NCBI GenBank assembly: GCA_016718135.1
Contig: JADKEF010000002.1
Span: forward strand, 3,536-67,535
Length of the DNA stretch: 64,000 nucleotides
Source: Acidobacteriota bacterium
GTDB lineage: Bacteria; Acidobacteriota; Blastocatellia; Pyrinomonadales; Pyrinomonadaceae
Direction of reading: 5' to 3'
Below the pieces are notes generated by a model, which made no database searches, was not told the origin of the DNA, and saw nothing but the letters and a program-made list of their open reading frames with translations. The position numbers were made by a program, and so were the translations under genes. Within the stretch, counting starts at the first letter, position 1. Each line of letters begins with the position of its first letter. Shown piece by piece: positions 21,814 to 62,636 of this stretch.

Positions 21814-21890
21814 GAATTACGCGAATAGGACGAATAAAAGCGATGCTTTTGAAAAGCAATTTCTTATTCGTTTTATTCGCATTATTCGCG
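21814..21890. repeat. imperfect hairpin with arms built from CGAATA(A) tandem units
   Basis: CGAATAGGACGAATAAAAGCGATGC..loop..GCAATTTCTTATTCGTTTTATTCG, directly downstream of the udg stop. Confidence 0.6.
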
Positions 21891-21907
21891 GGCAAAACTC
21901 CTTCTTC

Positions 21908-22891
21908 CTATATAGATGCTGCAAGATAGTCGCGAACCATCTTCATATCTTCCCAAACCTCGCGTTTCTTATGCGGATCGCGAAGGAGATACGCCGGGTG
22001 AAATGTTGGCATGACCTTCGTCCCCAAATAGTCGTGAAAATGGCCGCGCAGCTTACCGATCGGGACCTTTGTTTCAAGCAAATTCTGCGCAGCAGTCGCT
22101 CCCAAAACAACGATGACCTTTGGCCGCACAACCGCGATCTCTCGAAACAGGAACGGCTTGCAAACGACCGATTCGTCAGGCTCCGGTGCACGATTGCCCG
22201 GCGGACGACAGCGATTCATATTACCGATAAACACTTCCGAACGCTCAAAGCCCATCGCCTTGATAATATCAGTCAAAAGCTGACCCGCACGCCCTACAAA
22301 CGGCTCGCCCTGAGCATCCTCATCCGCCCCCGGAGCCTCGCCGACGAACATGAGATCAGCATTAAAATTCCCAACGCTATTCACAACCTTCGTCCGGCCG
22401 AGCGTGCTCAATTTGCAACGCCTACATTCAGAGCCGATTTCCGCCCGAATCGCCTCGATCGTCTCAGTTGGTTCCGGCATTGCCGGCACGGTGTCGAAAA
22501 GCTCGATGCTCGGAACCCCAACTATCGGCTTCTGATCAACGATTGGAGCCGCAACTAGCGCATCGTCCAAAGTTTCCTTCGCCACCGATTCCTGCGGGTT
22601 ATATTTATCAAAAAACGCATTCTTCGGCCTGCTCGACAAAGACGGCAGCGACGCCAACCGTGAACCCGCCGCGGGACGATCAACCGGTTTCGTGACTTCG
22701 GGCTGTTTATTTAAAATTTCAGATCCCAAATTGGAGATCTCGGGCGACGCGGGAACACCCCGCAAAGTCTCGCGGGTCGGAGCCGCCGTAGGCAGAGCTA
22801 TTTCCGCGTCCAACGTCCTCACCCCAAGCTCCTGCATATAAAGCACTTGCTCGCGTACATCCGCAATAAGTTCGCTGATCTCGTTCCCCAT
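21908..22891 (-). CDS. family-4 uracil-DNA glycosylase with a roughly 110-aa N-terminal extension
   Basis: C..C.L, VGEAPGADEDAQGEPFVGRAGQLL and TFHPAYLLR motifs. Confidence 0.85.
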   Translation of the reverse strand: MGNEISELIADVREQVLYMQELGVRTLDAEIALPTAAPTRETLRGVPASPEISNLGSEILNKQPEVTKPVDRPAAGSRLASLPSLSSRPKNAFFDKYNPQESVAKETLDDALVAAPIVDQKPIVGVPSIELFDTVPAMPEPTETIEAIRAEIGSECRRCKLSTLGRTKVVNSVGNFNADLMFVGEAPGADEDAQGEPFVGRAGQLLTDIIKAMGFERSEVFIGNMNRCRPPGNRAPEPDESVVCKPFLFREIAVVRPKVIVVLGATAAQNLLETKVPIGKLRGHFHDYLGTKVMPTFHPAYLLRDPHKKREVWEDMKMVRDYLAASI

Positions 22892-22917
22892 CCTCTTAAT
22901 TTCGTAATTCGTAATTC

Positions 22918-24150
22918 CTAATTCGTAATTGATTGCCCCTGTCGCAGTCGAATGACTTCGTCCAAAATACGGTCGCCCAACTCCCTTTTCGAAATTAGCG
23001 GCAATTCAGTTTCGGTGGTGTGTGTGATGATCGTCGCGATGTTCGTATCTGTGTTAAACCCCGCACCTTCTTTTGTAATGTCGTTCGCGACAACGATATC
23101 CAGGCCCTTTTTCTCCATCTTCGAGCGGGCGTAGCCGACGACGTCATTCGTCTCGGCAGCAAACCCGACGACCATCAAGCCGTCATGCCGATTCCGCGAA
23201 ACGTCCGCCAGAATATCCGGCGTCTTCTTGAGTTCCAACGTCATCGTATCGCGGCCTTCTTTCTTGATCTTTGCATCAGCTGCATTCGCCGGCGCATAAT
23301 CCGCAACCGCCGCGGCCCCGACAAATATGGTCGCCGATGGCAGTTCCTTCATCACCGCCTCATGCATCTGTTCCGCTGAAACGGCGCGGATCACATTCAC
23401 ATTCGACGGGGGCTCAACGGTAGTTACACCTGCGACAACAGTGACCGATGCCGCACGATCCGCCGCCGCCGCCGCCAACGCAAATCCCATCTTGCCGGAC
23501 GAATGATTAGAGATAAATCTAACTGGATCGATCGCCTCACGCGTACCGCCGACGGTTATCAGTAATTTCTCTCCAGCCAAATCCGCCTTTGCGTCTTTGC
23601 CCCTTTGCGTCTTTGCGTTAAGAAGTCTTAACGCCTGCGAAACAATATTCTCCACATCTTCCAGCTTCCCCGTCCCGACCGTCTTGCACGCTAGTTCCCC
23701 CGCGACCGGATCGACAAAATGGACGCCGTCCGCACGAAGCTGCTCGACATTCCGCTGAGTGGCGGGCTGTTCCCACATTGTCACGTTCATCGCTGGAGCG
23801 ATAATCACCGGGGCGGTGGTCGCCAGATACGTCGAAGATAGAAAATCGTCCGCCACGCCGTTGGCGAATTTGGCGATAATATTCGCCGTCGCCGGAACGA
23901 TCAGGAGCAGGTCGATGTTTTGCGAAAAATTGATATGCGCGATCGGGTCAGGATTCGCCGGATCGTAGTCATCCACAATGACATGCCGGTCGGTCAGCGC
24001 CCTGAACGTCAACGGCTGCACAAACTCCGTCGCATGCCGCGTCATCGCAACCGTGACATCGCACCCGGCCTTCTGCAACAGCCGCAAAACCTCGACCGCC
24101 TTATAAGCCGCAATACCGCCTGTGACACCTAATCCGATGTTGAAAGTCAT
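22918..24150 (-). CDS. coaBC: bifunctional phosphopantothenoylcysteine decarboxylase / phosphopantothenate-cysteine ligase
   Basis: 410 aa with an N-terminal flavoprotein domain (GVTGGIAAYK), TVGGTREAIDPVRFISNHSSGKMG and KKGLDIVVAND. Confidence 0.9.
   Translation of the reverse strand: MTFNIGLGVTGGIAAYKAVEVLRLLQKAGCDVTVAMTRHATEFVQPLTFRALTDRHVIVDDYDPANPDPIAHINFSQNIDLLLIVPATANIIAKFANGVADDFLSSTYLATTAPVIIAPAMNVTMWEQPATQRNVEQLRADGVHFVDPVAGELACKTVGTGKLEDVENIVSQALRLLNAKTQRGKDAKADLAGEKLLITVGGTREAIDPVRFISNHSSGKMGFALAAAAADRAASVTVVAGVTTVEPPSNVNVIRAVSAEQMHEAVMKELPSATIFVGAAAVADYAPANAADAKIKKEGRDTMTLELKKTPDILADVSRNRHDGLMVVGFAAETNDVVGYARSKMEKKGLDIVVANDITKEGAGFNTDTNIATIITHTTETELPLISKRELGDRILDEVIRLRQGQSITN
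23587..23633. repeat. CTTTGCG(T/C) tandem units plus 9-bp palindrome embedded in frame in the coaBC inter-domain linker
   Basis: cctttgcgt ctttgccc ctttgcgt ctttgcgt followed by GCGTTAAGA-AG-TCTTAACGC. Encodes LLNAKTQRGKDAKAD on the minus strand. Confidence 0.7.
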
Positions 24151-24366
24151 ACTACTCCGACTGATTGATTATAAGCCGATTTGTTGCAATCTTGCTTTAC
24201 TAACCGCTAAGTTTCGTGAGATCCGTAGACCTGACCAGCGTGCGAAGCATTCCGGCGATGTCTATTTCTGATCACTCATATAGTTGCAGGGAAAATTCGG
24301 ATTCTGATATTCTTGAAACGTAGCTGCTCGATCATACCTTAGTACCAAATTATAGAATACAGAAAA

Positions 24367-25399
24367 ATGAAACTTGGTAATTTCCCCGTTGTATTTTTTA
24401 CGGTAATTTTCGTCGCGATTGCCTCAGTAGCTCAAACGGGTTTCAAATCGCCGCAGCAACATATTGCGGCAATCGAAGCGGGCGAACGCGAGATCGCCGC
24501 GGATCCGTGGAATCAGAGAGCCTATACAAACCACCGCCTAGCGCTTTATGACCTCGAGAAGGAACGCAGGGCTGGACGGACCGGCCTGCCCGCGATCCAA
24601 CCGTTTCTCGACAGGGTGTCGAAGGGTCATCCCAACAATATCTGCGTCGACTGGAGCATCAAATCCCTTCGTCCCTGGAAGAACCTCAAGGAATACGCGG
24701 ATGCGGTCGAACTTTCGCTCCGTTCACATACCGATCGGCGCGGCGATACCTGCGCCGCCGATCTTGCAAAGGACGCCGGGATCATGCTGTCAAAGGACGG
24801 TCAGTACAAACGAGCCGAGGAATTCTTCGTAAAGCAAAAGGCTGTCGCTCCAAAGGACCCGTTCGTTGACGGTTACATACGCGAGGCAAAAGAAAAGGCC
24901 CACACAAAGATGATGCAGGACGTCGTGAAGATCGGAGCCGCCGAGGGCAGCAAAGAACCTAAGCTCGTTATCCTGCCCGACGGCGGTATCTACGTGGGCC
25001 AGGTGAATGCGGCGGACCGTCCTCATGGCAAAGGGCGGTATCAAGGCCAAAACGGCAACATCTACGAGGGATCATTCTTTGACGGTCAGATGACGGGCTA
25101 CGGCGTGTACAAATATACGAACGGCCGGAAGTATGAGGGCGAGTTTTACAAGACCAATTTCCACGGCAAGGGGCCGCTACGACGCGATGGAATGGGTCTA
25201 CACCGGCGACTTCAACCTCACTAAAATGACTGGCAAAGGCAAACTGGTTTATGTGAGCGGGCCCAATAAAGGCGAAGAGTACGAAGGCGATTTCCTCGAT
25301 GGACAGATCCACGGCGAGGGCACGTACCGCCAGAAAGACGGCCAGGTCGTCTGGGGCACCTTCGAGAAAGGCCGTTTGGTGAAATCGGCAAAGTGGTGA
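24367..25399 (+). pseudogene. secreted MORN-repeat protein, reading frame broken by one apparent 1-nt indel
   Basis: ORFs 24367..25224 and 25133..25399 join as ..YEGEFYKTNFHGKG|RYDAMEWVYTGDF.. (YxGxxxxGxxxGxG MORN units). The frame changes at ggcaaggggccgctac, about 25170-25176. Confidence 0.7.
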
Positions 25400-25409
25400 A
25401 GCTTCGCAT

Positions 25410-26672
25410 CTATAACGATCCCAAGGACCGGATCCGTGACCGATCCAGAGAACCGCCTTTTACGAGCAGTTCAACCTCTTCCCTAGCCCAGGGCGAATAC
25501 CCATTCGCTGGATCGGCGACCTCGACCACGAACTGCTCCCAGTCAACCCATTTCACATCATTGACCTCTGCCGGATTTGGACGCGGCAAAGCGGACGCAA
25601 ACCCCACAAACACCGGACAGATCTCATTCTCAACCACGCCGTCTTTTTCGGCTCGGTAGCGGAAATCGGGGAGGATGAGGTGGAGTTTTTCTACTCGCAT
25701 TCCGAGTTCGTATTTGAGGCGGCGGCGGGCGGCGGATTCGGTGGATTCGTGGAGCATGACGTGGCCGCAGCACGAGTTTGACCAGACGCCGGGCCAGGTT
25801 TTCTTGGTGAGGGCTCGCTGCTGTAGCAGCAATTCGCCTTTGTCGTTGAAGAGGAAGATAGAGAACGCGAGATGGCGCTTGGTGTCTCCGTCATGAGCGG
25901 CGAGCTTGCGGCTCGTTCCGGTCGGCACGCCCGATTCGTCGCAATAAACGATCATGTCGTCAAAGGCGTAGTGATACTTGCTGTAAAACGCCGCAAGCAA
26001 AGCGATCACAACGATACCAATCGCTAGAGGCCAGTACATCCCTGAGAAAAACGCGATGAACGTCCAGAACGCGACAATAAAAAACGTGCTTGAGATCATT
26101 TGCGCCGGGGCGGGCAGCAAAGGTTTTTTGATCAGAGTAAAGGTCTCAAGCACGACGCCGGCAATGGCCCCCGAAAACAGCCAGCCGACAAAATTCGAAA
26201 CCGGAACGCCATAAAAAACTCCGCCGCCCTCGTACCGCCAAAACCCGATCTTCACCGCTCCGGGGTCTAGAACGAGATCGAAGACAACAAGCAGCACTGC
26301 CGTCAACACGATCCGAAGAATGCTGGCTACTAGCTGATAGCTAACAGCTAACGGCTTTGCTTCGAACAACCGCCGGGCGATCGCATAGGCCGCTAAAACT
26401 AAAGGAGTCCAAGCCAGAAAAACCGTCCACGGCGTCAACCCAAACAACCGAAAACCGAGCAGACCAGAATACCCAAAATGCCCGTACGGAAAACCTGTGA
26501 TGATAGCGCTCGTCTCGATCACCAAAGCCAAAACACCCAACGCTCCCCACAGCAGAAAAGCGTCACGCCAACCAAGCCACCATCGCGTCGCCCAAAATGT
26601 CGGTGCCGCAAACAGGATGACGTTGATGCCGGACACCCAGGCAAGCGAGGGCGGAATGACGACATTCGCCAT
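25410..26672 (-). CDS. fusion of CruF-type carotenoid biosynthesis membrane protein (DUF422/Caroten_synth) with type-1 isopentenyl-diphosphate isomerase (Nudix)
   Basis: The N-terminal roughly 240 aa are polytopic with ITGFPYGHFGY and LDPGAVKIGFWRYE. The C-terminal roughly 175 aa carry LAFSIFLFN..GELLLQQRA..K..WPGVWSNSCCGH and E.E.CPVF (Idi). The ATG at 26670-26672 is preferred. Confidence 0.75.
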   Translation of the reverse strand: MANVVIPPSLAWVSGINVILFAAPTFWATRWWLGWRDAFLLWGALGVLALVIETSAIITGFPYGHFGYSGLLGFRLFGLTPWTVFLAWTPLVLAAYAIARRLFEAKPLAVSYQLVASILRIVLTAVLLVVFDLVLDPGAVKIGFWRYEGGGVFYGVPVSNFVGWLFSGAIAGVVLETFTLIKKPLLPAPAQMISSTFFIVAFWTFIAFFSGMYWPLAIGIVVIALLAAFYSKYHYAFDDMIVYCDESGVPTGTSRKLAAHDGDTKRHLAFSIFLFNDKGELLLQQRALTKKTWPGVWSNSCCGHVMLHESTESAARRRLKYELGMRVEKLHLILPDFRYRAEKDGVVENEICPVFVGFASALPRPNPAEVNDVKWVDWEQFVVEVADPANGYSPWAREEVELLVKGGSLDRSRIRSLGSL

Positions 26673-26676
26673 TTCG

Positions 26677-26818
26677 CCGGGAACGCAGCCGCCCTCGGCT
26701 GCAAACGCCGGTTCCTCCGGCGTGGAGGTACTATCAATTCTCACGTTGAAGCGTTCACCACGCGCACCAGCGTCCCGAAGCGGAACGCTTTTGCAGTCGA
26801 GGGCGGCTGCGTTCCCGG
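26677..26818. repeat. 142-nt element with 21-bp perfect inverted termini, in the divergent promoter
   Basis: CCGGGAACGCAGCCGCCCTCG at 26677-26697 and its exact reverse complement at 26798-26818. The arms extend to 29 bp if one G:T pair is allowed. Confidence 0.85.
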
Positions 26819-26843
26819 CCGTAGGTTCGCTATACTCTCCTCG

Positions 26844-27686
26844 ATGCATTTCCTCCTCAAAGTCAGCCGCCCGCGATTTTGGTTCTATATTTTCGGGCCG
26901 TATCTTGTCGGCCTGGTCGCGGCGGCCGAGACGCGAGGAGACTTGCTCGATTGGCGGTTCGCTCTGTTTGGGCTCTATTTTCTGCTGCCGGCAAACCTTC
27001 TGATCTACGGCGTCAACGATATTTTCGACTATGAGACAGACAAGCTAAACGAGAAGAAGAACGCTTACGAAACTCTCGTCGTCCCCGATCGTCGAAAGTC
27101 GTTGACGATTGCAATACTCACAACGAATATACCGTTCATAATCGCCTCGATCATTTTCGCTTCCGCAGCTTTACCTTCGCTCGTGGGCTTTCTGTTTTTT
27201 TCTATCTTCTACTCCGCACAACCCATTAGAGCGAAGACAAAGCCCTTTCTCGATTCAGCATTCAACATCTTGTACGTCTTTCCCGGAGCGTTCGCCTATC
27301 AGATGGTTTCCAGCACTTTCCCACCAATCGGTCTAATGATAGCCGCCGGATGCTGGACTGCGGCGATGCATGCGTATTCGGCGATCCCGGATATTGAGGC
27401 GGACAAGGCTGCCGGATTGAAGACCATTGCTACCGTCCTCGGCCCGTATGGAACGCTTGCCGCTTGTGCCATTCTCTACGCCGCGTCCGCGATTCTCTCG
27501 GCCGAACACCTCGGCATCGCAAGCTTCACGCTCGGCGGGGCATATATACTGTTGATGCTCGCCTCGGTGGCTTCGTATCGATCCGGCCGTCTTTTCAAAC
27601 TCTACCGTGCTTTTCCGCTCATCAACATCGCCGCCGGTTTCGTGATTTTCTGGAACGTAGCATTGTCAAAACTGCTCCCTTTGTAA
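26844..27686 (+). CDS. UbiA-family prenyltransferase, lycopene-elongase-like
   Basis: 280 aa, polytopic, with RPRFW, the NDIFDYETD aspartate-rich motif and a second D-rich region. TATACT lies 7 nt upstream of the ATG, so the mRNA may be leaderless. Confidence 0.75.
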   Translation: MHFLLKVSRPRFWFYIFGPYLVGLVAAAETRGDLLDWRFALFGLYFLLPANLLIYGVNDIFDYETDKLNEKKNAYETLVVPDRRKSLTIAILTTNIPFIIASIIFASAALPSLVGFLFFSIFYSAQPIRAKTKPFLDSAFNILYVFPGAFAYQMVSSTFPPIGLMIAAGCWTAAMHAYSAIPDIEADKAAGLKTIATVLGPYGTLAACAILYAASAILSAEHLGIASFTLGGAYILLMLASVASYRSGRLFKLYRAFPLINIAAGFVIFWNVALSKLLPL

Positions 27687-27691
27687 ACTCC

Positions 27692-29198
27692 TTACAATGA
27701 GGTCATCGGCTCTGCGGACGTAATCCCATGCACACGTTTGTAAGCGAGTTCCGCGCTGATCAGACATATCTGCGTCCCGATGCCCGGATTCGTTCCCGCA
27801 CCGACATAAAACAGATTCTCGACCTTCTTCGACTTATTCTTAGGCCGAAATATCGCGGTCTGCCTTAGCGTATGAGCGAGACCGAGTGCAGAGCCTTTGA
27901 ACGCATTGTAGTCAATTCCAAAATCCGCGACCGTGTAAATACGTTTATATTCGATCTTTTCGCGAAGACCCGGCAGGTTCATTTCCGTTTCCATCAACGC
28001 CAAAACGCGATCGGCATACGCGTCCTTCTCAGCATCGGAGATCTCCAGTCCCGAAGCGATCGGCACCAGAACAAACAAATTCTCCTTCCCCTCCGGAGCA
28101 ACCGACGGATCGGTCACGCTCGGGGCACAGACATATAGCGACGGCTCGTCGGGCAGACGCGGGTCTTTGTATATGTCATCAAAATTCTTTCGCCAGTCTT
28201 CACTGAACAACAGATTGTGATGTATCAACGAAGGCAGCTTTTCGCTGACGCCGAGATACATGATGAACGCCGACGGGGCCATCGTGCGTTTTTGCCAGTA
28301 CTTCTCTTTGTGCGTTTGCTGTGGAATGTCGAGCAGCTGCGTCTCGGTGAACCACATATCGGCGTTCGAGATGACAAGATCTGCGTCGATCACTTCGCCG
28401 CCTTCGAGTCGCACTCCAACCGCCTTTCCGTCGCGAACGATGATCTTCTCGACCGGTGAATTGGTCCGTAAAACCGCTCCATTCTTCTCCGCGATGTTCG
28501 ACAAAGCCCTGATCAGCTCGTAAAAACCGCCCTGCGGATAAAACACTCCCTGGTTAAAGTCCATGTGCGACATCAGGTTGTACAGCGCCGGGGCTTCGTA
28601 GGGCGAGGTGCCGAGGAAGACCATAGTGTATTCCATCACCTGCTGCAGCTTTTTCGACGTGAAGAACTTCGACACAAACTTATGCATCGTCGAGAAAACC
28701 GAAAGCTTTTGCCCCTCGGTCATCACGCGTTTGTTGAAAAAATCGAAGATCGTATCGTAATTCTTAAACATGAAGTGCTGCGTCGCGACTTCATATTGAT
28801 ATTCGGATTGTTTCAAATAAGCCCGCAGCTTATCACCCGCTCCCGGCTCGATCGCGTCGAAGGTTGCGGTGTCGATGTCGATATTTGAGTTGATATCCAG
28901 CGGATCGCCGTTGTTGCGAAAAAAGATGCGATACGAAGGGCCGAGTTTACGAGGTCAAGATGATCCTCGACCTTTTCGCCTACGAGATTAAAGTAATGCT
29001 CGAAGATGTCCGGTGCCAGATACCACGACGGCCCCATGTCGAACTTAAATCCGTCATGCTCCAGAAAATGTTCGCGCGGCCGCCGAGGTTCGCGTTTTTT
29101 TCCACGACGGTCACATCGTAACCCTTCCGCGCAAAAAGACCGGCGGCCCCGAGACCGCCGATTCCAGCTCCGATAATTACGAGTTTCTTACCTACCAT
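27692..29198 (-). pseudogene. crtI: phytoene desaturase family (CrtI/CrtD), frame broken by two apparent 1-nt indels
   Basis: Three ORF pieces join colinearly: MVGKKLVIIGAGIGGLGAAG..VVEKN..LGGRA | ..HDGFKFDMGPSWY..EDHLDLV | ..LGPSYRIFF...FMFKNY...C-terminus. Shifts at about 29065-29075 and about 28944-28950. The start overlaps the crtB stop (TAATG). Confidence 0.8.
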
Positions 29199-30079: not shown

Positions 30080-30248
30080 AGGGTTAGTCGTTCAAGAATC
30101 CTTGTTCGCCGAAGAGCTCAATTTGGATTCACTATGTTTTGCGTCCCAGGATATCTGCATTAAGAACCTTATTCACAAAAAATACAAGGGAGTTCGCCAG
30201 AAGCCGAAGATTTCAGAAATCGCGAACGATACGCGATAATCGCCCCTT

Positions 30249-30779: not shown

Positions 30780-30856
30780 ACGCCCGCTTTAAACATGCAA
30801 ATGCTTTAAATGCTTGTGCTGTTTTAAACACCCCGTATTAACCAAGTGCTTTAAAC
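30773..30856. repeat. five copies of G(C/T)TTTAAA(C/T) upstream of rplM
   Basis: Copies at 30773, 30786, 30803, 30821 and 30848. The first overlaps the nudF stop codon. Confidence 0.6.
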
Positions 30857-30985: not shown

Positions 30986-31423
30986 ATGAGTACTACTTAT
31001 TTTCCTAGCGGAAAGGGATTGGCTGAAAATCGTAAATGGTTGGTCGTGGATGCCAAGGGCAAGACGGTTGGCCGTTTGGCGACTGAGGTCGCTCGCATTC
31101 TGTCGGGCAAGAACAACCCGGCTTGGACGCCGTTTCTCGATATGGGCGATCACTGTGTTGTCATCAATGCTCGTCATGCGGTCTTCACCGGTGCCAAAAA
31201 TGACCAGAAGATCTATTACCGCCACACGCTGTATCCGGGCGGTTTGCGTGAGACGACCGTCAAAGAGATGTTCGAGAAAAAACCTGAAAAGGTCATCGAA
31301 CTCGCGGTAAAAGGAATGCTGCCGAAAACAAAGCTCGGCAAGGCAATGGCAAAGAAATTAAAGGTTTACGCCGACGCGGAACACCGTCACATCGCGCAGA
31401 AACCGGAGGCGAGAGAAATCTAG
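30986..31423 (+). CDS. rplM: 50S ribosomal protein L13
   Basis: [37 protein letters not shown]. Confidence 0.95.
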
Positions 31424-31497
31424 TGAACAGCGAATGTGAATAGTGAACAGTCAAGATCTGCTCACCGTTATTCACTATTCACCACTCACTATTCACT
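31421..31497. repeat. heptamer-armed hairpin (GTGAACA/GTGAATA units) between rplM and rpsI
   Basis: tagtgaacagcgaatgtgaatagtgaacagt ..loop.. ttattcactattcaccactcactattcact. Confidence 0.8.
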
Positions 31498-31504
31498 AAA
31501 AGAT

Positions 31505-31897: not shown

Positions 31898-31902
31898 GAA
31901 GA

Positions 31903-31963
31903 TGGTTTTTGGTTTTGGGTTTTTAGCTTTTGCGAAAACCCAAAGCCGAAAGCCCAAAACCAT
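31903..31963. repeat. hairpin with GGTTTT(T/G) heptamer arms, probable rpsI terminator
   Basis: atggtttttggttttgggtttttagcttttgc / gaaaacccaaagccgaaagcccaaaaccat. Confidence 0.7.
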
Positions 31964-32026
31964 TGGCGAGACATTTGGTTAAAATTGACCGATCCCGCCA
32001 AGTACATAAACCAGGAGAATAAAGTT

Positions 32027-33019
32027 TTGGCTACAGTTACGATGAAAGAGCTCCTCGAAGCAGGAGTTCATTTTGGTCACCAGGTTCGCCGTTGGAATCC
32101 GAAGATGAAGGAATACATCTTTGGAGAGCGCAACGGCATTTACATTATAGATCTGCAGAAAACGCAGAAATTGTTCCGCGACTCGCTCAATTGGGTCACC
32201 GAATCCTTGAGTGCTCGTCCGAATCAGAAGGTTCTCTTCGTCGGCACCAAGCGTCAGGCTCAGGAGGCGATCAAGGAAGAAGCGGAACGCTGCGGACAGT
32301 TTTACATCAATAACCGCTGGCTCGGCGGCCTCTTGACGAACTACGAAACCGTCAAAAAATCGATCAACAAGCTTAAAGAGATCGAAACGATGCAAGAGGA
32401 TGGCCGCTTTGAAATGCTCACCAAGAAAGAGCGTTTGCAGCTTACTCGTGCTCACGAGAAATTGATGAAGAATTTGGCCGGCATCAAGGACATGAACGGA
32501 ATGCCCGATCTCATGTTCGTCATCGATGTCCGCAAAGAAGATATCGCGATCAAGGAAGCCAACAATCTTGGCATCCCGATCGTTGCTGTGGTTGACACTA
32601 ACTGTTCTCCCGATGGTATTGACCTTGTCATTCCCGGTAACGACGATGCCCTTCGTGCTATCCGTCTTTTTGCCTCGCGTATCGCTGATGCGATCATCGA
32701 AGGCAAGCAGATCGGGACCGAAGGCGGAATTGCCGTTACTGAGCCTACTGAGGAGGAAGCCGCAGCCGAGGCCGCGAAGGTCGAGATCGCTCTTTCGTCG
32801 ATCCCTAAGGAATACCTTAGCGAAGACGAGCGTGCCGAGATGGAATCGGCCGAAGTTCCTGATGAGGAAGAAGACGACGTCGTCTCTGCCGATATGGAAC
32901 TGACAGCGGATGCTGGGCCTGCCGCCGAAGCACCGGCTGAGGTTCCCTGCCGAGACAGCCACGGAAACAGCCGGGGCAACAACGGAAGAAAGCACGGAAG
33001 CAACAGCAAGCTAACCTAG
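32027..33019 (+). CDS. rpsB: 30S ribosomal protein S2 with acidic C-terminal extension
   Basis: TTG start 8 nt after AGGAG gives [27 protein letters not shown]. There is an acidic tail of about 90 aa. The last roughly 25 codons may be out of frame (see finding). Confidence 0.9.
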
Positions 33020-33032
33020 TTTTTGAATTATC

Positions 33033-33078
33033 AAGCGTAGCTTTTTTCCGGTGTTCGGCAATTGGCTACGCTTTTTTA
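33033..33078 (+). terminator. hairpin + T-run between rpsB and tsf (terminator/attenuator)
   Basis: 9-bp stem AAGCGTAGC/GCTACGCTT followed by TTTTTTAT. Confidence 0.55.
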
Positions 33079-33102
33079 TAAGCAATTATTGGAGTTTAAG
33101 TT

Positions 33103-33765: not shown

Positions 33766-33770
33766 GATCA

Positions 33771-33840
33771 GTTCATAGAGTTTATTGAGTTCTTTGAGAG
33801 TATTGTCTCAATGAACTCAATGAACTCTATAACTCAATAA
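33771..33840. repeat. hairpin with GAACTCAAT/ATTGAGTTC-type tandem arms between tsf and pyrH
   Basis: gttcatagagtttattgagttctttgaga / tctcaatgaactcaatgaactctataactcaataaac. Confidence 0.7.
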
Positions 33841-33844
33841 ACTT

Positions 33845-34564
33845 ATGGCAACGCCAAAATTCAACCGAATTCTTCTTAAGCTTTCCGGCGAAGCTCTCAT
33901 GGGTTCGCAGAGCTATGGCATTGATACAAAGGTTGCTGAGGCGGCGGCGAAGGAACTGAAGGCGGTTCACGAACTCGGTATCGAGATCGCGATCGTGGTC
34001 GGCGGCGGAAACATCTTTCGCGGTGTTTCGGAGTCCGCGGGAAACATGGACCGCGCAGCGGCCGACTATATCGGTATGCTCGCGACGGTGATGAATGCCG
34101 TAGTTCTCCAGGATGCCCTTGAACAGCAAAATGTCTACACACGCGTGATGTCGGCGATCGATATTCCGCAGCTTGCCGAGCCATTCATTCGCCGGCGTGC
34201 GGTGCGGCATCTTGAAAAAAAACGTGTCGTCATATTTGCAGCCGGAACCGGAAATCCGTATTTTACTACTGATTCGGCTGCGGCCCTCAGAGCACTTGAG
34301 ATACAAGCAGACGTTATCCTCAAGGGCACAAAGGTCGACGGAATTTATACTGCCGATCCGGTCAAAGATCCGTCGGCAACGCGTTTTGAAAAGATCACGT
34401 TCCAGGAAGTTCTCGAAAAACGCCTGAACGTAATGGACGCCTCGGCGATATCGCTTTGCCGGGACAACGACCTCCCGATCATGGTTTTTAACATGCGGGA
34501 AAACGGAAATATTGCAAAAGCAGTGTGCGGCGACATGTCGATCGGCACATTGGTAACTAACTAG
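33845..34564 (+). CDS. pyrH: UMP kinase
   Basis: [41 protein letters not shown]. Confidence 0.95.
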
Positions 34565-34659
34565 TGAATAGTGATCAGTGATCAGTGAACAGTCTAGGAA
34601 GTACGGAAATAACTGTATGAGGCTCATCACTATTCACTATTCACTATTCACTGTCCACT
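34563..34659. repeat. heptamer-armed hairpin (GTGAATA/GTGATCA units) between pyrH and frr
   Basis: agtgaatagtgatcagtgatcagtgaacagt ..30-nt loop.. catcactattcactattcactattcactgtccact. Confidence 0.8.
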
Positions 34660-34665
34660 AATCAT

Positions 34666-36544: not shown

Positions 36545-36612
36545 TTGCGGCTTCTTTGCGTTCTTTGCGGACTTTGCGTGAGAGTCCGGAATTTTCACGC
36601 AAAGCTCGCTCA
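36545..36612. repeat. CTTTGCG tandem units ending in a 10-bp-stem hairpin
   Basis: cttctttgcg ttctttgcg gactttgcg, then CTTTGCGTGA..13-nt loop..TCACGCAAAG. Confidence 0.7.
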
Positions 36613-36665
36613 GGTCGCAATGGACGCGAAGTGGAACGTCCCAGAAATGTCGGTGAGCCGCGTGC

Positions 36666-39779: not shown

Positions 39780-39781
39780 GC

Positions 39782-53690: not shown

Positions 53691-54239
53691 ATGTCGCGTC
53701 GGTGGTCGCACCGCAGTTGTCGGCGGCACGGATCGTTATCGTGTGCGTACCGAACGGGGCCGCGTTTGTGAATGTGACCACACCCGCAGGACTGACTGAA
53801 ATGCCTCCCGTGTAGGTTCCGGTATTCTGGACCACGACCGAGGCGACGTTACCATTATCGGATGGACCTGTGGCAGGATTGACCACCGTGCCTGTTGCAT
53901 AAGTAATGGCCGCGGGATTGGTGTACGTGAGTGTTGGCGGCGTGTTTGGAGTAATGTTGACCGTCAAAGTCCCTGTACCCGTCGCTCCTTGAGCGTCGGT
54001 CACAACGAGGCTGAATGTCGCCGTCGTCGCGCCGCAGGCTGCGACAACATTCGCCGTCACCGCACCGCCAGCTGCGATCGAGAGCCCGCTGACCGTCACG
54101 CCGTTCACCGTAGCACTCGCACCGTTATTTACCGTTATGCCAAGCGTATTCGGAGCCTGTTCAGTATCAGCCGCCGTAGCGATCGTAAAGTTCCCCACCG
54201 GACTGCCCTCAGGAGCAGAGATCGTGTCACTGCTGATCG

Positions 54240-55290
54240 TCGGCGGCGTGTTGCAGGTTCGTGTGAGGATCGAGACGTTGTGTGAAGAGGAGTTACCCGC
54301 TGCGATGTCCTGATCGCCGTCGCCGTTAAAATCACCGACTGCGACAGAAATGGGATTTGTGCCGACTCCAAAACTTACGGCCGGTGCAAATGACCCTGCT
54401 CCGTTGCCGACGAGGATCGACACGTTGTTTGAATTGATATTTGCCGCTGCGATGTCCTGATCGCCGTCGCCGTTAAAATCACCGACTGCGACAGAAATGG
54501 GATTTGTGCCGACTCCAAAACTTACGGCCGGTGCAAATGACCCTGCTCCGTTGCCGACGAGGATCGACACGTTGTTTGGATTGAAATTTGCCGTAGCGAT
54601 GTCCTGATTGCCGTCGCCGTTAAAATCGCCGACCGCGACCGATACGGGAGTTGTGCCGACTCCAAAATTTACGGCCGGTGCAAATGACCCTGCTCCGTTG
54701 CCGGTCAGGATCGACACGTTGTCTGAATTGGAGTTTGCCGCCGCGATATCCTGATCGCCGTCGCCGTTAAAATCACCGACTGCGACAAAATAGGGATTTG
54801 TGCCGACTCCAAAATTTACGGCGGGTGCAAACGACCCTGCTCCGTTGCCGGCGAGGATCGAGACGTTGTTTGAATTGAAATTTGCTGCAGCGATGTCCTG
54901 ATTGCCGTCGCCGTTAAAATCACCGACTGCGATTGAATAGGGCGTTGTGCCGACTCCAAAATTTACCGCCGCAGCAAACGATCCCGCTCCATTGCCGGTC
55001 AGGATCGAGACGTTGTTTGAACCGCGGTTTGCGGCTGCGATGTCCTGATTGCCGTCGCCGTTAAAATCACCGACTGCGACAGAATAGGGATTTGTGCCGA
55101 CTCCAAAATTTACGGCCGGTGCAAACGACCCTGCTCCGTTGCCGGCGAGGATCGACACGTTGCTTAAAAAGCGGTTAGCCGTCGCGATGTCCTGATTGCC
55201 GTCACCGTTAAAATCACCTACTGCGACAGAATAGGGAATCGGGTCGACCGCAAAATTCACCGCCGGCGTAAAATTGAGTCCGGCACAGAC
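54240..55290. repeat. seven FG-GAP-type blades encoded by a 147-nt tandem DNA repeat, with adjacent copies nearly identical
   Basis: A stretch of about 130 nt beginning gcgatgtcctgatcgccgtcgccgttaaaatcaccgactgcgac occurs at 54302 and again at 54449. The protein repeats as VAVGDFNGDG(N/D)QDIA.AN...NNVSIL.GNGAGSFAPAV.FGVGT.P.S seven times. Confidence 0.85.
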
Positions 55291-58200
55291 AGGTGCATTA
55301 TTCACCGTCAGGTTAAATGTAGTCGTCGACGTACCGCCGGGGCCAAATGCCCAAACCGTGACCGGATATACGCCCGGAGGAATATTCGCCAGAGCCGCAT
55401 TCGTCACACGCACCACGCCAGTCACCGGATCGGCTGTCAACCCGCCAATAAAGCTCGTTGGTGCTGAAACGCTGATACTCGTCGTCCCCGTCGGAACCGC
55501 ACCCGGCGTGATCGTCACATTGTCGCTCAAACCAACCGATGTCGCCGGATACACACCCAGCGTCGGCGGGAGGACGTAAGTATAGAGCGTATTCGGGGCA
55601 TTTGTTCCGTTAGGTGTTGTTACCACAACACTTGCCGTGCCTGTGGAACCAGCGGGCGTTACGGCTGTGATGGTCGTACTGTTGACGACCACGACGCTCG
55701 TCGCAGGGTTGCCGGCGAATGTAACGGTGGTTGCTCCAGTCAGGTTAGTTCCGGTGATAGTTACTGCAGTTCCTCCGGCTGTTGAACCGGTCGACGGATT
55801 GACACTCGTGACCGTCGGCGGAACAACGGCCGTCAGGACAACGTCGTTATTATCGCCGCCCACATAGCTGATCTTGGCGTTGAGGCCCGAGCCGAGGAAG
55901 TTCGTGATCGTCGCTCCCTCGGCGAGGCCCGCAAACGTACCGCCGACTGGATCCGCACCGTCGTTGTTGATGATCACGTACTGTTGTCCGGCAGTAGGAA
56001 CGAACCCGCCTAACTGAGCGATGGACAGATTTGCGTCAGTAACATCGACAGTTCCGGTGACGTTCATCTGGTCGTGGAAGCCCGGACCGTTGCCCGGCGT
56101 CGCTCCGCCGATCTCGATCGCGAAATTTGATCCGGCGCCTAGCGACAACAGAGTCGCGACGTTAATGATACCGGGACTCGCTCCGGGCCGCAGAGTTCCT
56201 CCGGGATTAACGGAGAGCGGATTGTTCACCGTTCCAAAAATACCGAGGTCGCCCGATCCAAAAACGAGTGTTGCGACGGGAGTGCTGAGATTCGTCGTCT
56301 TCGTCTGTGAGATCGCGCCGACAACATTTATATTTCCGGTATTCGCGTTGCCGATATTCAGCGTCCCTGCCGTTATTCGATCAAGCTCGGCGTCGGAGAG
56401 TTCTAACGTCGATGGCGTCGTATCGACCGTGGAGCCGAGGTCGATGGTCAGGTTGTTGGTCTTTTGCCGCAGCGATACGACGTTGCCCGCGGCATTGATC
56501 GCACCGTTCGTGGTGTTGATCGCCATGCTGTCAGAGATCAGGGTGACAGTGCTGCCAACACCGCTTGCGGTGAGCGTTCCGGCTCCGGCTGGGGCGATGT
56601 TGATACCGGCATTATCCGTTCCGCCCGAGCCGCCTGTTCCGGTCATGCTGATCGCACCCGTCACAACCGAGACATTTGAACCGCCGCGGACCTGGACGCC
56701 CTGGTTCGTGCCTCCTGCGCCACTGCCGCCTGTGCCGGTGATGGTGATATTCGCAGCGCCCATCGCCGTGATGTTGTTGCGGATCGACACACCAAAATTG
56801 AAGCTAGCTCCGCCACCGGATGTTCCGCTGATGATCAGGTTTGAACCGGTCGTCGAGACCGTTCCGTCCTGCCGATAGCCTTGTGAGCCCCCAGCTCCGC
56901 TCGGTCCGCTGGTGCCAGTCAGAATTGCAGTGCCTGAGCCACCGGCAGATATCGACGATCCGGCCGAGGCAAGTATGCCAGCTGAACCGATGAAACCTGC
57001 CCCCACATTACCGGAGCCCCCTACGCCGATAAGCGTAAGATCCGCATTCGCAACGGAAAGCGGGCCGAAGGTAGAAAATCCGTATGAGGATCCCGCGCTC
57101 GAGCTTCCACCAGTGGCCGTGATATTGACAGGCCCATCGACGGACGAAATGCCTGTCGTAGCTGTGTTAATGATCACACCTCTAGATGATCCCGCACCCG
57201 GAGTTATATTGCCGCCTAGTGCATCGATCGTGATCGACGCTGCGCCAGCCCCCGTTCCTGTCGAGCTGATAACCGAAGGCACACGGATGTCCAAGGCATA
57301 CGAGAATACGTTCGCTCCGCCGGTCGAATCGCCGCCTCTCGCAGTAATGCCGATGTTCCCGACAACGGATGTAATCGATCCGCCGCCGTTGAGGAAAACA
57401 CCTATATTAGGAGCATCACCCGTAGATGTGGCTCTACCATCTATTGTGATCGTACCCGCACCCGCGGAAGCACTCGTTGAGCGGACAAAACAGCTCGTCC
57501 CACTTAAAGCAATACCCATAGACGAAGCAAACGCATTGGTCTGTGCGGTTGTACCGCTTCCGCCCTTTCCGTTCATGACAATGCTGCCGGTACCGGTCGT
57601 CTCAATGACGGCGTCAAACATCTCAATACCGACCGAGTATCCCGGATTTGGTATTGCCTGCTGATTCGCATTCAACGTCGCGTTTCCGTTGACCACGCTG
57701 ATACTTGAGCCGCTGCCCATGAAGATGTTTCGGCCCGCCGTCAGCGAAATCGAACCCGTGCCGCTCATCGTGAGGTCGCTAGCCGCATTTTGCAAATATT
57801 GGGTTTGGGATACAAAGGTCGAGACGTTCTTGTTCGTCCCGAAGCCTATTGTGCCCTCAAAAGATACATCGAGAAACTCAAATCCTGGCGAACCGATCGT
57901 CAAGCCCGGATAATTCGCCGCGAGCGTGAATGCGTTCAACGTGTCGGTCGCATTACCGCGATTGACTGTGATGGATCCTGTTGGATTGGCGAACGTCGTC
58001 GTTTCAAATGTTGCGGTCACCGCCGTCAAAGTCGAACTCCCGCTGCCGGCATCGGTAAGGTGAACGATATTTGCAGGCCCCGCCGGAAGGTTAAAGATCA
58101 CATCCGCCGCCGTGCCGCTGTTAACGATCGGTTCGAGGCCGGTGTAGGTGATCGTGCCTGTGCGAGTGCCGCCGACCATAACGATGTCGCCATCGTTTGC

Positions 58201-61200
58201 GTTGAAGTAGTTGTACGTTGTCGTGCCGCCCGAGTAACCGGTGATGTTGAGGGCGTCATCGCCGCCCGCACCGCCGTTAAAGAATAATCCGCCAACGGCA
58301 ATAACGCCTTCGCCGCCGCTAGGTGCAGTGATAAAGTCGCAACCCGAGAGATCGACCGTCAGCGTGTCGTTCCCGCCGTACGTGTTGACCGTGATCGAGC
58401 CCGTGACCGACGAGGTCGGGATCGTCTGATTCAAACCCGTACCGGGATCTGTGATCGTAATGTCAGAGCCGCTGCAGGCGATCGTGATGTCGTCGTTAGA
58501 GGTGCCGCCGTTCGTGTCCTCGATCAGCAAATTTCCACCGCTGACCGTTACTGTGGTCTCCAGCACCGTCGCGAACTCATCTGCGCCGATGTCAGGCGTA
58601 GTTACGCTGCGTGCTTCGTCATCGAAGTCAGTCGTGACAGCGGCGATGGGGGTTCCTATGTTGCTGACAGGCGAGGAAGGCGATACGTGGAGGTCGGTGG
58701 CCGATACGAAGAGCGGGTCACTCGAGATCGAATTCGTATCCAGTCCAGTCGCGGACTGCCACTGGGCAAGGCTCGTTAATTGGGTTGCACCGGCGTCCGG
58801 GCTGCCAAAAACGGCCCCGGCACCCGTCACGTAGATATCGTTGTAATTCATCGCGGTGCCCGAGGTCGAATCGAGAACAACGCCAGAGTTCGGGCCTCCT
58901 GCATGCAATGTTGAATTGACAAAAATGTTGTTTCTGATATCGAAGCTGCCGGGGGAGTTTCCGCCCAGGGCGAGGAAGGCTATCGATTGAACTCCGTCGC
59001 TCGAGCCAAACAGTCCGACCGAGTTGTGATATACATTTACCGTCCCGGCAGCAACATTAGCCCAGATCCCTACAGGGTCAATGCTGTCACCTGGAGAGGA
59101 TGTGCGGGAGATCATGTTGTTCGACACCGTCAACAAGTCCGTTGGCTGCCCCGCAATTAGATTAATACCAGTGGCCGCGCCGCGGATCAGATTGCGGTCG
59201 ATGACGGTCGCTCCGAACGTTTCGACGCCCGATTGTAGATCTATCCCTGTGCCGTCCGACTGATCCATCGTGTTGCCGCGAATGACCGAACCGGACATGT
59301 TGTAAATTTCGATCGCCGTGCCCAACGCCTGCGTAAACTGGTTATTCGTAACGGTCGGTCCGGGAATATTCGGAACCGTTGCACCCGCCGCGATCGCCCA
59401 CCGCAGCGAGCCGGTGACGGGAGCGAAGGCACAGTTGTCCACGACAACATTAGTCCCAATGTCATCGAGGCGAAGTGCGGTTCCAACCCCGGTGGCGCTG
59501 ATCGCGACATTCTTAACCGTTATGTTGCTGCCCAGGATATAGAGCCCATTCCCGCTAAAAGAGCCGTCCGAGTTTGCGAACGAGAGATCTCGTGAAGTAC
59601 CGCCGACCTGATTTGAACCATCGATAATGATGTTCGACGCGGTATTCCCCATAAAGAGAAACGGGTTCGCAAACGACCCGGAGAATGCGGGCGTCTGGCC
59701 GGCAGCTGGTTTGATCGTCAGCGTATTGGTCGTGCTCGAGCCGAGAGCGGCCGAGATCGATATCGGATACGTTTCGCTATTGTACGAGCTGTCAATAAGG
59801 CTGAACGTCACCGGCCCGCTCACGCCCCGCGTATTGTATGCCGCGGCGGCCGCGGTCAACGTCGCAAAATCGCCGCCGACGCCGACGGTATATGTGCCGT
59901 TGAGCGGAGTCAGATATGTATATTGATTCGCGGCCGCGGTCGCACTGGTGCCGCCGGGCGTCGTCACGGTCACATTCACCGTGCCCGCAGAGCCAGCCGG
60001 TGCGGTCGCCGTTATAGAGGACGCGTTGTTGAACGTAAAGGCGGCGCTCGTCGCCCCAAACATAACCGATGTCGCGCCGGTAAAGTTCGTACCGCCTATC
60101 GCAACTGCATTGCCGCCCAGGGCGGAACCCGATGTCGGATTTAGAAGCGTTACGGTTGGAGGAGCGACGTAGGTGAATCTGTTCGCTACCGCGATAGCGC
60201 TTGTACCGCCCGCAGTCGTCACTCTAACGTTGATGATCCCAGCAGTGCGGGCCGGAGATGTCGCGGTGATCTGCGTCGGGCTGTCGACCGTGAATGTTGT
60301 TGCGGCCGTTGTACCGAACGTGACTGCGATCGTACCGGTAAAGTTCGTTCCAGTGAGCGTGACAACGGTGCCGCCCGCAGTCGGGCCGGATGTCGGATTG
60401 ACAGCCGTGACGGTCGGCGCAGCTACGTACGTGTAGAGCAGATTCGGCCCATTAGTTCCACCGGGCGTGCTGACCAAGACGCTAACCGATCCCGCTGAGT
60501 GCGCCGGTGCCGTGCAGTTGATCTCGGTGTCCGAAACGAAATTCACCGATGTACAGGCGTTGCCGTCAAACGTCACACCTGTCACTCCCGTAAACCCGGT
60601 ACCCGTGATCGTGACACTGTTACCGCCTATGACCGACCCGGATGTCGGATTGACGGCGGTGACCGTCGGTCCCGACAAGGGAGCCTCGTAAGCTCCGATA
60701 TCTGTACCGTCGGCTGCATTAGTTGGTGAATTATCCACCGTTCGTGCGAACCCGGCTCCGCGCTGATCGGCGGTCAAAGGAACAAGCGCATTTATGCCCT
60801 TATCGAGCGCCGGGCTGCCGGGGAGCACGGCGTGCGTCTCTGTTGGGCCGCCATTGTTTGCCAATGGGCCGAGCATCGCATCGTCGTACTCGATGACAAT
60901 ATCGTTCGAACCGCCGCTGATGGCGCCTGCGACCCCGATCAGGTTATAGCCCTGCGAAGTTAAGGTGCCTACAATGTCGAAACCAGCTCCGCTGCAGATG
61001 TTATTGGCGATGATGGAACTGCGGGAATTCACAGTACTAGTGGCACTGTTGTAAATACCGCCGCCGCAGAAGAGCCCCGCCGTATTGGATGTGATCGTCG
61101 AGTTGGTAACCGTTACCGCGCCGGACGAACTGTTGTTTATGCCGCCGCCGCCCGAACTGGAGTTGCCGGAGATCGTCGAATTGGTTACGGTTAGCGTGCC

Positions 61201-62418
61201 GCTGTTAGCGATACCGCCGCCTTGGCCGGCGCTGATGTTTGTAGAGTTTCCGGAGATTGTCGAGTTGGTGACATTCAACGTGCCAGTGTTGCCAATGCCG
61301 CCGCCGGAGTCGCGTGCAAAGTTGCCGGAGATCGTCGAGTTCGTGATCGTGACCGTGCCGTTGCTCGCATTATAGATACCGCCGCCTACTCCGCCGCCGC
61401 TTCCGTTTGTAGAGTTGGCGGAGATGGTCGAGTCACTAATTGTCAGCGTACCTTCGTTAAAGATACCGGCGCCGAAGCCGTCGTTTGCGACTTGCGGCGC
61501 ATCTCCCGAGATAATTGGGGCAGATAAACGGCCATCCGTTCCCGTGCCGCCTTCGATTTGCGGCCTGGGTGGATTGGAGATAATTGGGGCAGATAAACGG
61601 CCATGCCGGACCGTGAGGCCGCTGATCGACGCGGTCACGCCGCTGTTGACGTAAAACACGCGGTCCCCCGCCGCATTTGGCGCGGCATTTGCCTGAACGA
61701 TCGTCGTCGGTGCCCCTGCACCTGTTATGGTCAGATTCTTATCTACGGTGATGCCCCATTGCGTATAGGTCCCCGCCGCGATGCTGATCGTTTCGCCCGT
61801 AGCCGCCTGCCCGATGGCATACGCGATTGTCGCACAAGCCGCCGAAACGCAGTTCCCCGTGTCCGATCCGGTTGTCGCAACAACAAGGCGGGTTATGGTA
61901 TTCGAGCTGAAGTCATCCGAGAAAACAGTCGCAATGGCCAGCGGTGCCTCCCCCGACGGTGTCGGCATCGGTTCCGCGACGACATTCACCGTTGCACCGC
62001 CGCCGAACCAGCTCGCTACTGATTCCACAAACCCAAAGCGCACTCCGGCGGCTCCGGCGGAGGTTGCCGTAATCGCGATGCCGGTGATTGCGGTTAGGAT
62101 GACGAGCGCTAGGACAGACGAATAGCGAGACGAACGACGGGGGGACATGCGCATAAAATTATTGCTCTCCGCTTGAAGCGATAACGGAAGGCAGTAAAGT
62201 ATTCGGTCGTGGAATGTATCGTCTCAGTAAACGCTGACACGACGCCCCGGCTTTACACCGTTAAATTGTTGCAAAATCTAGATTTCCTGTAATTATAGGC
62301 ACATAACAGGCAAAGTCAAGCTAAAAATTGGAAGGCATGGACGTGAGCTACAGCCGTGTATTTGCGGCGCGAACTCGCTCACTTTCAAGAATATTTGGCG
62401 GGAATTCGGGTGGAAATT

Positions 62419-62445
62419 AAAAAAGGGGCATTCCAGGATGCCCCT
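62419..62445 (-). terminator. rho-independent terminator downstream of tRNA-Val
   Basis: 8-bp stem AGGGGCAT/ATGCCCCT followed on the minus strand by T6. Confidence 0.65.
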
Positions 62446-62461
62446 AACTGATTGAAAAAAA

Positions 62462-62536
62462 TGGTGCCGTCTACAAGATTTGAACTTGTGACCTATCGCG
62501 TGTGAAGCGAGTGCTCTACCACTGAGCTAAGACGGC
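62462..62536 (-). tRNA. tRNA-Val (anticodon CAC), CCA encoded
   Basis: Hand-folded cloverleaf: 7-bp acceptor GCCGTCT/AGACGGC, D arm GCTC/GAGC, anticodon loop TTCACAC, T arm ACAAG-TTCAAAT-CTTGT, discriminator A + CCA. 75 nt. Confidence 0.9.
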
Positions 62537-62542
62537 GGAATG

Positions 62543-62636
62543 CAGTGAACAGTGAATAGTGAATAGTGAATAGTGAATAGGATTAGAATAAAACTCTTGA
62601 TCTCACTGTTCACTATTCCCTGTTCACTGTTCCTCA
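62543..62636. repeat. heptamer-armed hairpin ((AGTGAAT)n / (ATTCACT)-type) between the pilin gene and tRNA-Val
   Basis: agtgaac agtgaat agtgaat agtgaat agtgaat ..loop.. ctcactgttcactattccctgttcactgttcc. Confidence 0.8.

Follow-up and report, generated by a model that had tools for sequence, protein, structure and literature searches.

A 64,000-nt stretch of DNA (hereafter the window; C2:3536-67535) from a 20-contig, 3.9-Mb metagenome-assembled genome (MAG) of a soil bacterium of the Pyrinomonadaceae (G000; Blastocatellia, Acidobacteriota) carries, in many of its short intergenic gaps, long hairpins whose two arms are tandem arrays of a short unit and its reverse complement. An initial reading of the sequence (the original prediction) likened them to the STRR repeats of cyanobacteria, and the locus raises the question of whether such hairpins are transcription terminators, other RNA elements of use to the host, accidents of replication, or insertion elements. 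We report that these tandem-armed hairpins are real, abundant and new for Acidobacteria, and that they are a variant of STRR-type repeats and of intervening-sequence (IVS) elements. They occur in two forms, a few copies with a PF05635 or GxxExxY gene in the loop, and about 200 without a gene. The explanation which we favour, and to which we give an even chance of being correct, is that they are IVS-like stem-loop insertion elements, mostly gene-less, with arms shaped by replication slippage.

Abundance and position of tandem-armed hairpins

Hairpins were detected as arrays called by Tandem Repeats Finder (TRF) with a period of 7-11 or 14, paired with a reverse-complement partner at most 150 nt away, and were retained if they scored above the 99th percentile of random segments. 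Across the 3.9 Mb this detector returned 204 hairpins, whereas a block-shuffled copy of the genome gave 2, and what the original prediction had described at a handful of loci therefore holds genome-wide. Its contention that the architecture is constant while the unit varies is also supported. Single-linkage clustering yields 36 arm families. The largest family (101 copies) joins 8-10-nt units of the CGCAAAG, CACGAATAA and CACAGAGAA types; next in size are AGTGAAY (22 copies) and AGTTGTC (18 copies). Units are A/T-rich, with AGT present in 70 of 135, and periods of 8-10 account for more than half of the hairpins. Period-7 arrays number 298 across the genome, 153 of them within the intergenic fraction of approximately 10%, and neighboring arrays are paired in inverted orientation in 57 cases vs. 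4 in direct orientation. The median arm is 25 nt, the median loop 23 nt and the median complete element 74 nt, with an average of approximately 30 base pairs per element and a mean fold energy of -40 kcal/mol. Direct-only arrays are found at a further 194 intergenic loci, and hairpins lying within 3 kb of one another are only weakly inclined to belong to one family (6 of 59, vs. a background of 4%), so that a reading as local spread was rejected.

The position of the hairpins relative to genes was assessed with gene calls from our own codon log-likelihood model, because a longest-open reading frame (ORF) caller was misled by antisense ORFs running through the arms. Among 186 intergenic hairpins, 139 lie in co-directional, 25 in divergent and 22 in convergent gaps; a further 17 lie at ORF edges. 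In co-directional gaps the hairpin begins a median of 8 nt past the stop codon and ends approximately 15 nt (median) ahead of the next start codon. Of these hairpins, 84 have both codons within 30 nt, 33 have only the stop codon that near, and five only the start codon. The placement immediately after stop codons that had been proposed from the window is thus general, with 117 of the 139 lying within 30 nt of the stop. Among the 189 co-directional gaps that are 80-100 nt long, 40 contain a hairpin, and many hairpins are located inside operons, including the ribosomal-protein junction rplM-rpsI and the tsf-pyrH-frr series.

Genes enclosed by tandem arms

All four PF05635 genes of the genome lie between inverted tandem arrays, with arms (ATAGAAA)5...(TTCTATT)5, (GAGTTTTTA)4.6...(AACTCTACA)2.7, (AATTACG)4.6...(TAATTCG)3.7 and (GATAAAG)5...(ATCCTTC)3.9. 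PF05635 is the 23S rRNA intervening-sequence (S23p) protein, a four-helix bundle related to the Avd protein of diversity-generating retroelements. When the genome was scanned without bias for inverted arrays separated by 150-3000 nt, two genes for GxxExxY (PF13366/TIGR04256), a PD-(D/E)XK-like protein of nuclease fold, came up as well; the third was found by eye to be bracketed too, so that three of three GxxExxY genes are enclosed. Six of the nine single-gene intervals bracketed by arms encode PF05635 or GxxExxY proteins, in a genome of approximately 3400 genes, and the gene recognized by eye makes a seventh. The arms enclosing all PF05635 and GxxExxY genes of the genome had been overlooked in the original prediction. 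As a separate observation, rpsF-rpsR (C17:92310-93294) and rplR-rpsE (C1:32457-33527) each have, on both sides, hairpins or arrays of one unit family (GATTTTG; AGTTCGTTG), from which it follows that housekeeping genes can also resemble cargo.

The association extends to relatives, in which 24 of 28 PF05635 genes are bracketed by inverted tandem arms. Arm families of the cassettes recur as gene-less hairpins, for example at window positions 21804-21897 and 63242-63331, and sites that hold a PF05635 cassette in a relative are, in G000, either empty (gaps of 5 and 20 nt) or occupied by a gene-less hairpin (C3:58704-58788, C3:150417-150529). Across genomes, then, equivalent sites exist in three states: empty, with a gene-less hairpin, or with a gene-bearing cassette. 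Moreover, 48% of PF05635 pairs with at least 60% identity have an arm family in common, vs. 0.8% of the remaining pairs. As these comparisons include different loci, the arm family tracks protein similarity even between loci, which indicates that arms and gene travel together.

These elements resemble the IVSs, which are inserted in helices of 23S (or 16S) rRNA genes and are known from the 23S rRNA of Coxiella burnetii, Leptospira and Salmonella. In Coxiella the IVS spans 428 nt, has a terminal stem of 28 bp and carries a PF05635 ORF, its stem contains tandem GACAGAT heptamers whose copy number varies by strain, and RNase III cuts within the stem (PMC4990558). Both kinds of element have a long terminal stem (28 bp in Coxiella, median arms of 25 nt here) with tandem heptamers in variable copy number; in both, some copies have a PF05635 gene in the loop and others, approximately 100 nt in size, are ORF-less; and both are sporadically present or absent at fixed sites (PMC4990558). 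They differ in that the acidobacterial elements lie between protein-coding or tRNA genes rather than in rRNA helices, number in the hundreds, comprise dozens of unit families, and include GxxExxY cargo. Excision by RNase III is known for the rRNA elements, and by likeness may apply to those described here.

Turnover, origin and rival explanations

Comparison with relatives indicates that both the presence and the sequence of the hairpins change rapidly. In 80 loci of relatives, totaling 1.09 Mb, the detector found 138 hairpins vs. none in shuffled sequence, at a very uneven density of 0 to 8 per 20 kb; tandem-armed hairpins also occur in other Blastocatellia families. The rplM-rpsI gap is bimodal in 95 relatives, being either 2-20 nt and empty, or 60-100 nt with a tandem-armed hairpin, and depending on the species its units are AGTGAAY, AGTTGTC, AGTGGTC, AGTCCAA, GTTCAAA, GGATTTT, CGAATAT or others. 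Several units are linked by mutation (AGTGAAC, AGTGGTC, AGTTGTC, AGTAGTC) and mixed arrays exist, while some short rplM-rpsI gaps that retain one or two units look like collapsed former hairpins. When synteny was compared with three congeners (G014, the closest, G013 and G008), G000 and G014 were found to have units in common at three sites (33766, 34565, and 21796) in differing copy number, including a concerted difference of all units, CGAATA in G000 vs. CGAAA in G014, at the udg-cinA site. At pyrH-frr the right arm in G014 is homologous to that of the G000 hairpin at 34563-34659, and the junction is empty in G013 (a 7-nt gap) and G008 (a 4-nt gene overlap); the hairpins of the rplM-rpsI gap keep a loop core, AAGATC(C)TGC, while their arms differ. 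The pattern fits in-place slippage and homogenization accompanied by gain and loss of whole hairpins, and the concerted unit changes fit the slippage-type process that the original prediction had suggested.

If the hairpins are IVS-like insertion elements, then their tandem units of 7-10 nt would arise by replication slippage that repeatedly duplicates and deletes units, while complementarity of the arms would be upheld by templated correction from arm to arm, or by selection for pairing. Together, slippage and arm correction would change all units in concert and retain the fold. We propose that such an insert is tolerated at operon junctions because a compact, self-contained stem of 25-30 bp would hold the stop codon near to the start codon that follows. 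Once transcribed, the stem would be a putative substrate of RNase III, a gene for which is present in the genome, and by analogy with true IVSs could be cut so that the flanking cistrons still function.

Several findings weigh against this explanation. Dispersed copies from the same unit family have no loops in common, the only shared loops being those of a duplicated contig end (C2 vs. C17), and no common terminal or target-duplication signature was found genome-wide; together these results leave whole-element copy-and-paste mobility unsupported. The 23S rRNA of the genome itself is without an IVS (the match spans 2888 nt of a 2925-position model, with no insert of IVS size). Although PF05635 genes are more numerous in hairpin-rich MAGs (median 9.5 vs. 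4, p = 0.0012), the groups for that test were picked from single 20-kb samples, and in a second set of 14 genomes the co-occurrence was not significant (rho 0.37, p = 0.19). Remnants of cargo genes were absent from 47 long loops, and pseudogene fragments were absent elsewhere in the genome, hence the descent of gene-less hairpins from gene-bearing cassettes is not established; cargo genes might instead have settled in pre-existing hairpins. Lastly, codon-based gene calls are crude, which makes the distances to start codons approximate.

The tight tie of the hairpins to stop codons would also be expected of RNA elements that are selected by the host, whether as 3' stem-loops that shield upstream mRNA against exonucleases, as processing sites through which expression within operons becomes uneven, or as insulators of translation starts, with IVS-type genes merely exploiting the hairpins. 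Such selection could likewise account for the narrow range of arm lengths, for the filling of the rplM-rpsI gap in approximately 70% of 95 relatives despite complete sequence turnover, and for the same position rule among the heptamer arrays of Xanthomonas (PMC4692102). It is harder to reconcile with empty sites scattered among close relatives, with entire family lineages that have few or no hairpins, and with the 25 copies in divergent gaps. Nor was a strand bias of G-U over A-C found: the sense fold was the more stable in 75 hairpins and the antisense fold in 64 (p = 0.48), with 277 vs. 254 G-U pairs, in a test for which the 5' arm of the hairpin is identical on both strands by construction. 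The equality of sense and antisense folds provides no evidence of selection on one transcript strand, and we judge host selection to be unlikely. An origin as a pure by-product of mutation, whereby slippage makes the arrays and template switching the inverted copy, with neither element identity nor function, and with an incidental link to the small genes, appears improbable. The 194 direct-only intergenic loci and the concerted change of units speak for it, as does the excess of heptamers in many bacteria that has been ascribed to polymerase slippage (as cited in PMC4679880 and PMC4692102). However, gaps of 0-7 nt in relatives correspond to hairpins of 80-100 nt in G000, a difference that slippage cannot produce by itself; sizes fall in a narrow, bimodal range; and seven of seven cargo genes are bracketed by arms whose family tracks protein similarity across loci.

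We give scarcely any credence to the two remaining candidates, namely ordinary non-autonomous elements and terminators. Miniature transposable elements with inverted repeats (MITEs) or REPINs could be mobilized by a transposase or RAYT whose gene lies elsewhere in the genome, which does contain seven Y1-transposase-like genes (PF01797); arms of some families have a higher-order pattern, such as TTTAACGCAAAG-TCGCAAAG-GNGCAAAG-ACGCAAAG-GAAGA in approximately 15 copies, and within families hairpin pairs have one configuration in 638 cases vs. 189. Yet loops are locus-specific, unit families number in the dozens, no terminal dinucleotide or target duplication is shared, and the RAYT-like genes are flanked by other, ordinary repetitive extragenic palindromes (REPs). 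MITEs were rejected on the diversity of terminal dinucleotides (AA 40, TT 30, AG 24, TA 10) and on the unshared loops, and REP/RAYT mobility because the examined flanks of the seven PF01797 matches carry other palindromes, none of them tandem-armed. A target duplication of TA or YTAR, suggested by the TAG...CTA ends in the rplM-rpsI series, likewise fails genome-wide. Rho-independent terminators or attenuators, a function that the original prediction had entertained, would explain strong stems directly after stop codons, but a T-run of at least four follows only 10 of the 139 co-directional hairpins, vs. five on the antisense side, there is no sense/antisense bias, many hairpins lie inside essential operons, and 25 are in divergent gaps. 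This reading was rejected for want of a U-tract. A canonical hairpin-plus-T-run terminator, AGCGTAGC...GCTACGCTTTTTT, does follow rpsB at 33020-33102, and looks different: its sequence is conserved in four congeners, whereas the tandem-armed hairpins change fast.

Individual loci and related repeat systems

Within the window, fold energies range from -24 to -52 kcal/mol (to -45 kcal/mol for the six hairpins of the original prediction) and z-scores relative to dinucleotide shuffles from -4.2 to -9.6, and TRF calls their arm arrays with periods of 7 and 9 in 3-5 copies. An Rfam scan of the window matched a tRNA and nothing else, and the hairpins correspond to no known RNA family. Pfam matches confirm the genes on either side at rplM-rpsI, rpsI-rpsB, tsf-pyrH, pyrH-frr, and udg-cinA. 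All six hairpins listed in the original prediction exist, at or within a few bases of where they had been placed, and their arm arrays are confirmed by TRF; two more had been missed. The first of the six (21804-21897; -44.6 kcal/mol, z -9.5) has 8-10-nt units of the CGAATA(A/G) type inside a GCCC...GGGC outer stem, lies between udg (21908-22891, minus strand) and cinA (20554-21795, minus strand), and has arms of the same family as those of the GxxExxY cassette at C6:243734. An AGTGAAY/RTTCACT hairpin (31421-31498, z -4.2) occupies the whole rplM-rpsI gap; its first stem bases are the rplM stop codon TAG (31421-31423), and it ends 6 nt before the rpsI ATG (31505). After rpsI, and upstream of the rpsB leader, a GGTTTT(T/G)/AAAACC hairpin (31903-31963; -32.3 kcal/mol, z -7.4) has a best fold in which the arm register is slipped by one unit, leaving 9 nt unpaired, an example of the several alternative pairing registers that tandem arms permit; relatives have other units or plain hairpins at this site.

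The tsf-pyrH hairpin (33770-33840, extended stem 33770-33834; z -9.6) is built of the 9-nt unit GAGTTNATT / AATGAACTC, which G014 shares with one extra copy and a conserved loop, whereas G013 and G008 have other units. Another AGTGAAY/RTTCACT hairpin separates pyrH from frr (34563-34659, extended stem 34563-34652; z -7.1), its first unit overlapping the pyrH stop codon TAG, and the sixth (62543-62636; z -6.9), with AGTGAAT x5 and TCACTRT x4 arms (96% matches in TRF), sits between a tRNA gene (62465-62536, minus strand) and an ORF (62637-63125, minus strand). The two that had been missed are a hairpin of opposite configuration (36545-36632), with CTTTGCG x4 as its 5' arm and CGCAAAG as its 3' arm, which belongs to the genome-wide "type B" CTTTGCG family; and a 9-nt-unit hairpin, ACGGATCAA / GATCCGTTC (63242-63331; -51.7 kcal/mol, z -9.0), with units of the family that is also seen in the arms enclosing the GxxExxY gene at C7:161666-162052.

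Both direct-only arrays that had been described in the window are also real, although one of them was probably misplaced. On the minus strand at 22901-22930, (AATTACG)x4.3 as called by TRF spans the coaBC stop codon TAG (22918-22920), as had been claimed for TAATTCG, together with the 26-nt gap before udg, and its units are of the family from which the PF05635 cassette at C6:234608-235121 has its arms. The second, 4.7 copies of AGTTGTC/AGTGGTC (17563-17595, minus strand), lies between two pseudopilin genes, and had been assigned to a pseudopilin leader. This assignment is probably incorrect, as translation from a GTG at 17563-17561 yields a leader of the usual short kind, MIKTRQRG|FSLLE, and the array then falls in the 33-nt gap that follows the stop codon of the upstream gene. 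At this site G014 carries another array, GCCTTTT x4, and G013 and G008 carry none; in the G014 orthologue of window 17524-17596, AAGGYAA x4 seems to be translated in frame, giving a basic pseudopilin leader (..KVKGKRQKG|FSLLEL).

Other features of the genome were noted in passing. Between the rpsI hairpin and rpsB, the stretch 31960-32075 contains a genus-conserved CCATTG-N10-14-TTGGTT ... GAGTACAWAAACCAAGGAG which scores below every Rfam gathering threshold; it looks like a candidate leader structure of rpsB (S2). The TTG at 31985 probably lies too far upstream to be the start codon. Outside the window, RAYT/IS200-like Y1 transposase genes (C4:220052-220513, C4:29450-29875, C19:97457-97828, C6:338805-339194) are flanked by REP palindromes such as CGTCGCGTAGCGACG, GTAGCCGTGGGTGACAACCCACGGAAAG and GGACGTTAAAACGCCC, and this RAYT/REP pair forms another system of dispersed repeats, which has no relation to the tandem-armed hairpins. 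The end of C2 (window 62446-64000 and beyond, C2:65981-75200) is 89-97% identical to C17:1-9162 with many small indels, which could reflect assembly redundancy, strain mixture or read-error noise, and on account of which single-base indels in this assembly should be treated cautiously. The short contigs C12 and C13 (72-73% GC) and C14 (29% GC) depart far from the 53% GC of the genome and are probably binning contaminants.

Tandem heptamers in intergenic regions have precedents outside rRNA. STRR heptanucleotide repeats were reportedly described in the cyanobacteria Calothrix and Nostoc by Mazel et al. in 1990 (as cited in PMC4692102); STRR1-3 units are defined in heterocystous cyanobacteria, with STRR1 and STRR3 sharing a CAGT/ACTG core. 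The likeness to STRRs that was originally drawn is sound insofar as tandem repeats of heptamer type are present, and it extends to their intergenic location, the existence of several families and rapid change between relatives; many units in G000 also appear to share the CAGT-like core. The hairpins nonetheless belong to a different phylum and have different units, of which those of 8-10 nt are at least as common as those of 7 nt, and paired arms are here the rule. Dispersed intergenic hairpins of 70-110 nt are likewise formed by REP/REPIN-RAYT systems, but in those systems each arm is one conserved palindrome, and the palindromes lie on either side of a RAYT gene.

The GGGAATC arrays of Xanthomonas are 89-93% intergenic, with 70-75 convergent (inverted) pairs per genome (Rehm et al., 2015; PMC4692102). 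They lie mostly between co-directional genes, at a mean of 28 nt from the upstream ORF and closer to it than to the downstream ORF, and vary in length and sequence among close relatives (PMC4692102). They differ from the acidobacterial hairpins in consisting of one G-rich unit, read as a G-quadruplex former, rather than many A/T-rich families, and in that the report gives no link to genes in loops (PMC4692102). Direct repeats of TAACTGA are known from marine Beggiatoaceae and from some Cyanobacteria and Bacteroidetes (MacGregor, 2015; PMC4679880). They too are intergenic heptamer arrays, some of them in ribosomal-protein operons, with few Shine-Dalgarno sequences nearby, and TAACTGA is one base removed from the AACTGAC family common in G000; yet those repeats are direct, with one inverted case, and lie just upstream of start codons, whereas the hairpins described here are paired and tied to stop codons. 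The original prediction knew of no equivalent description for this kind of genome. We too found no publication describing such hairpins in Acidobacteria, nor one linking intercistronic heptamer hairpins with PF05635 or GxxExxY genes, but inverted heptamer pairs near the upstream ORF had been published for Xanthomonas (PMC4692102).

We tentatively advance a broader proposal, which is possible but more probably wrong than right: that STRRs, Xanthomonas GGGAATC arrays, Beggiatoa TAACTGA repeats, the acidobacterial hairpins, and both ORF-less and ORF-bearing rRNA IVSs form one pan-bacterial class of selfish stem-loop cassette. Such a cassette would settle in transcribed spacers or rRNA helices because RNase III removes it, PF05635 and GxxExxY proteins would act as mobility or maintenance factors, and the approximately 200 gene-less hairpins of G000 would be non-autonomous copies.

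Tandem heptamer repeats, first reported for cyanobacteria in 1990 and for Xanthomonas in 2015, have to our knowledge no accepted function or origin. Their link to PF05635 and GxxExxY genes in G000 makes of an unexplained repeat a testable hypothesis with an RNase III substrate, an Avd-related protein and a protein of nuclease fold. Practical consequences follow for annotation, as the arms mislead ORF callers through antisense ORFs that extend across them. The elements occupy about a fifth of operon junctions of 80-100 nt. In these widespread soil bacteria they probably influence how mRNA is processed.

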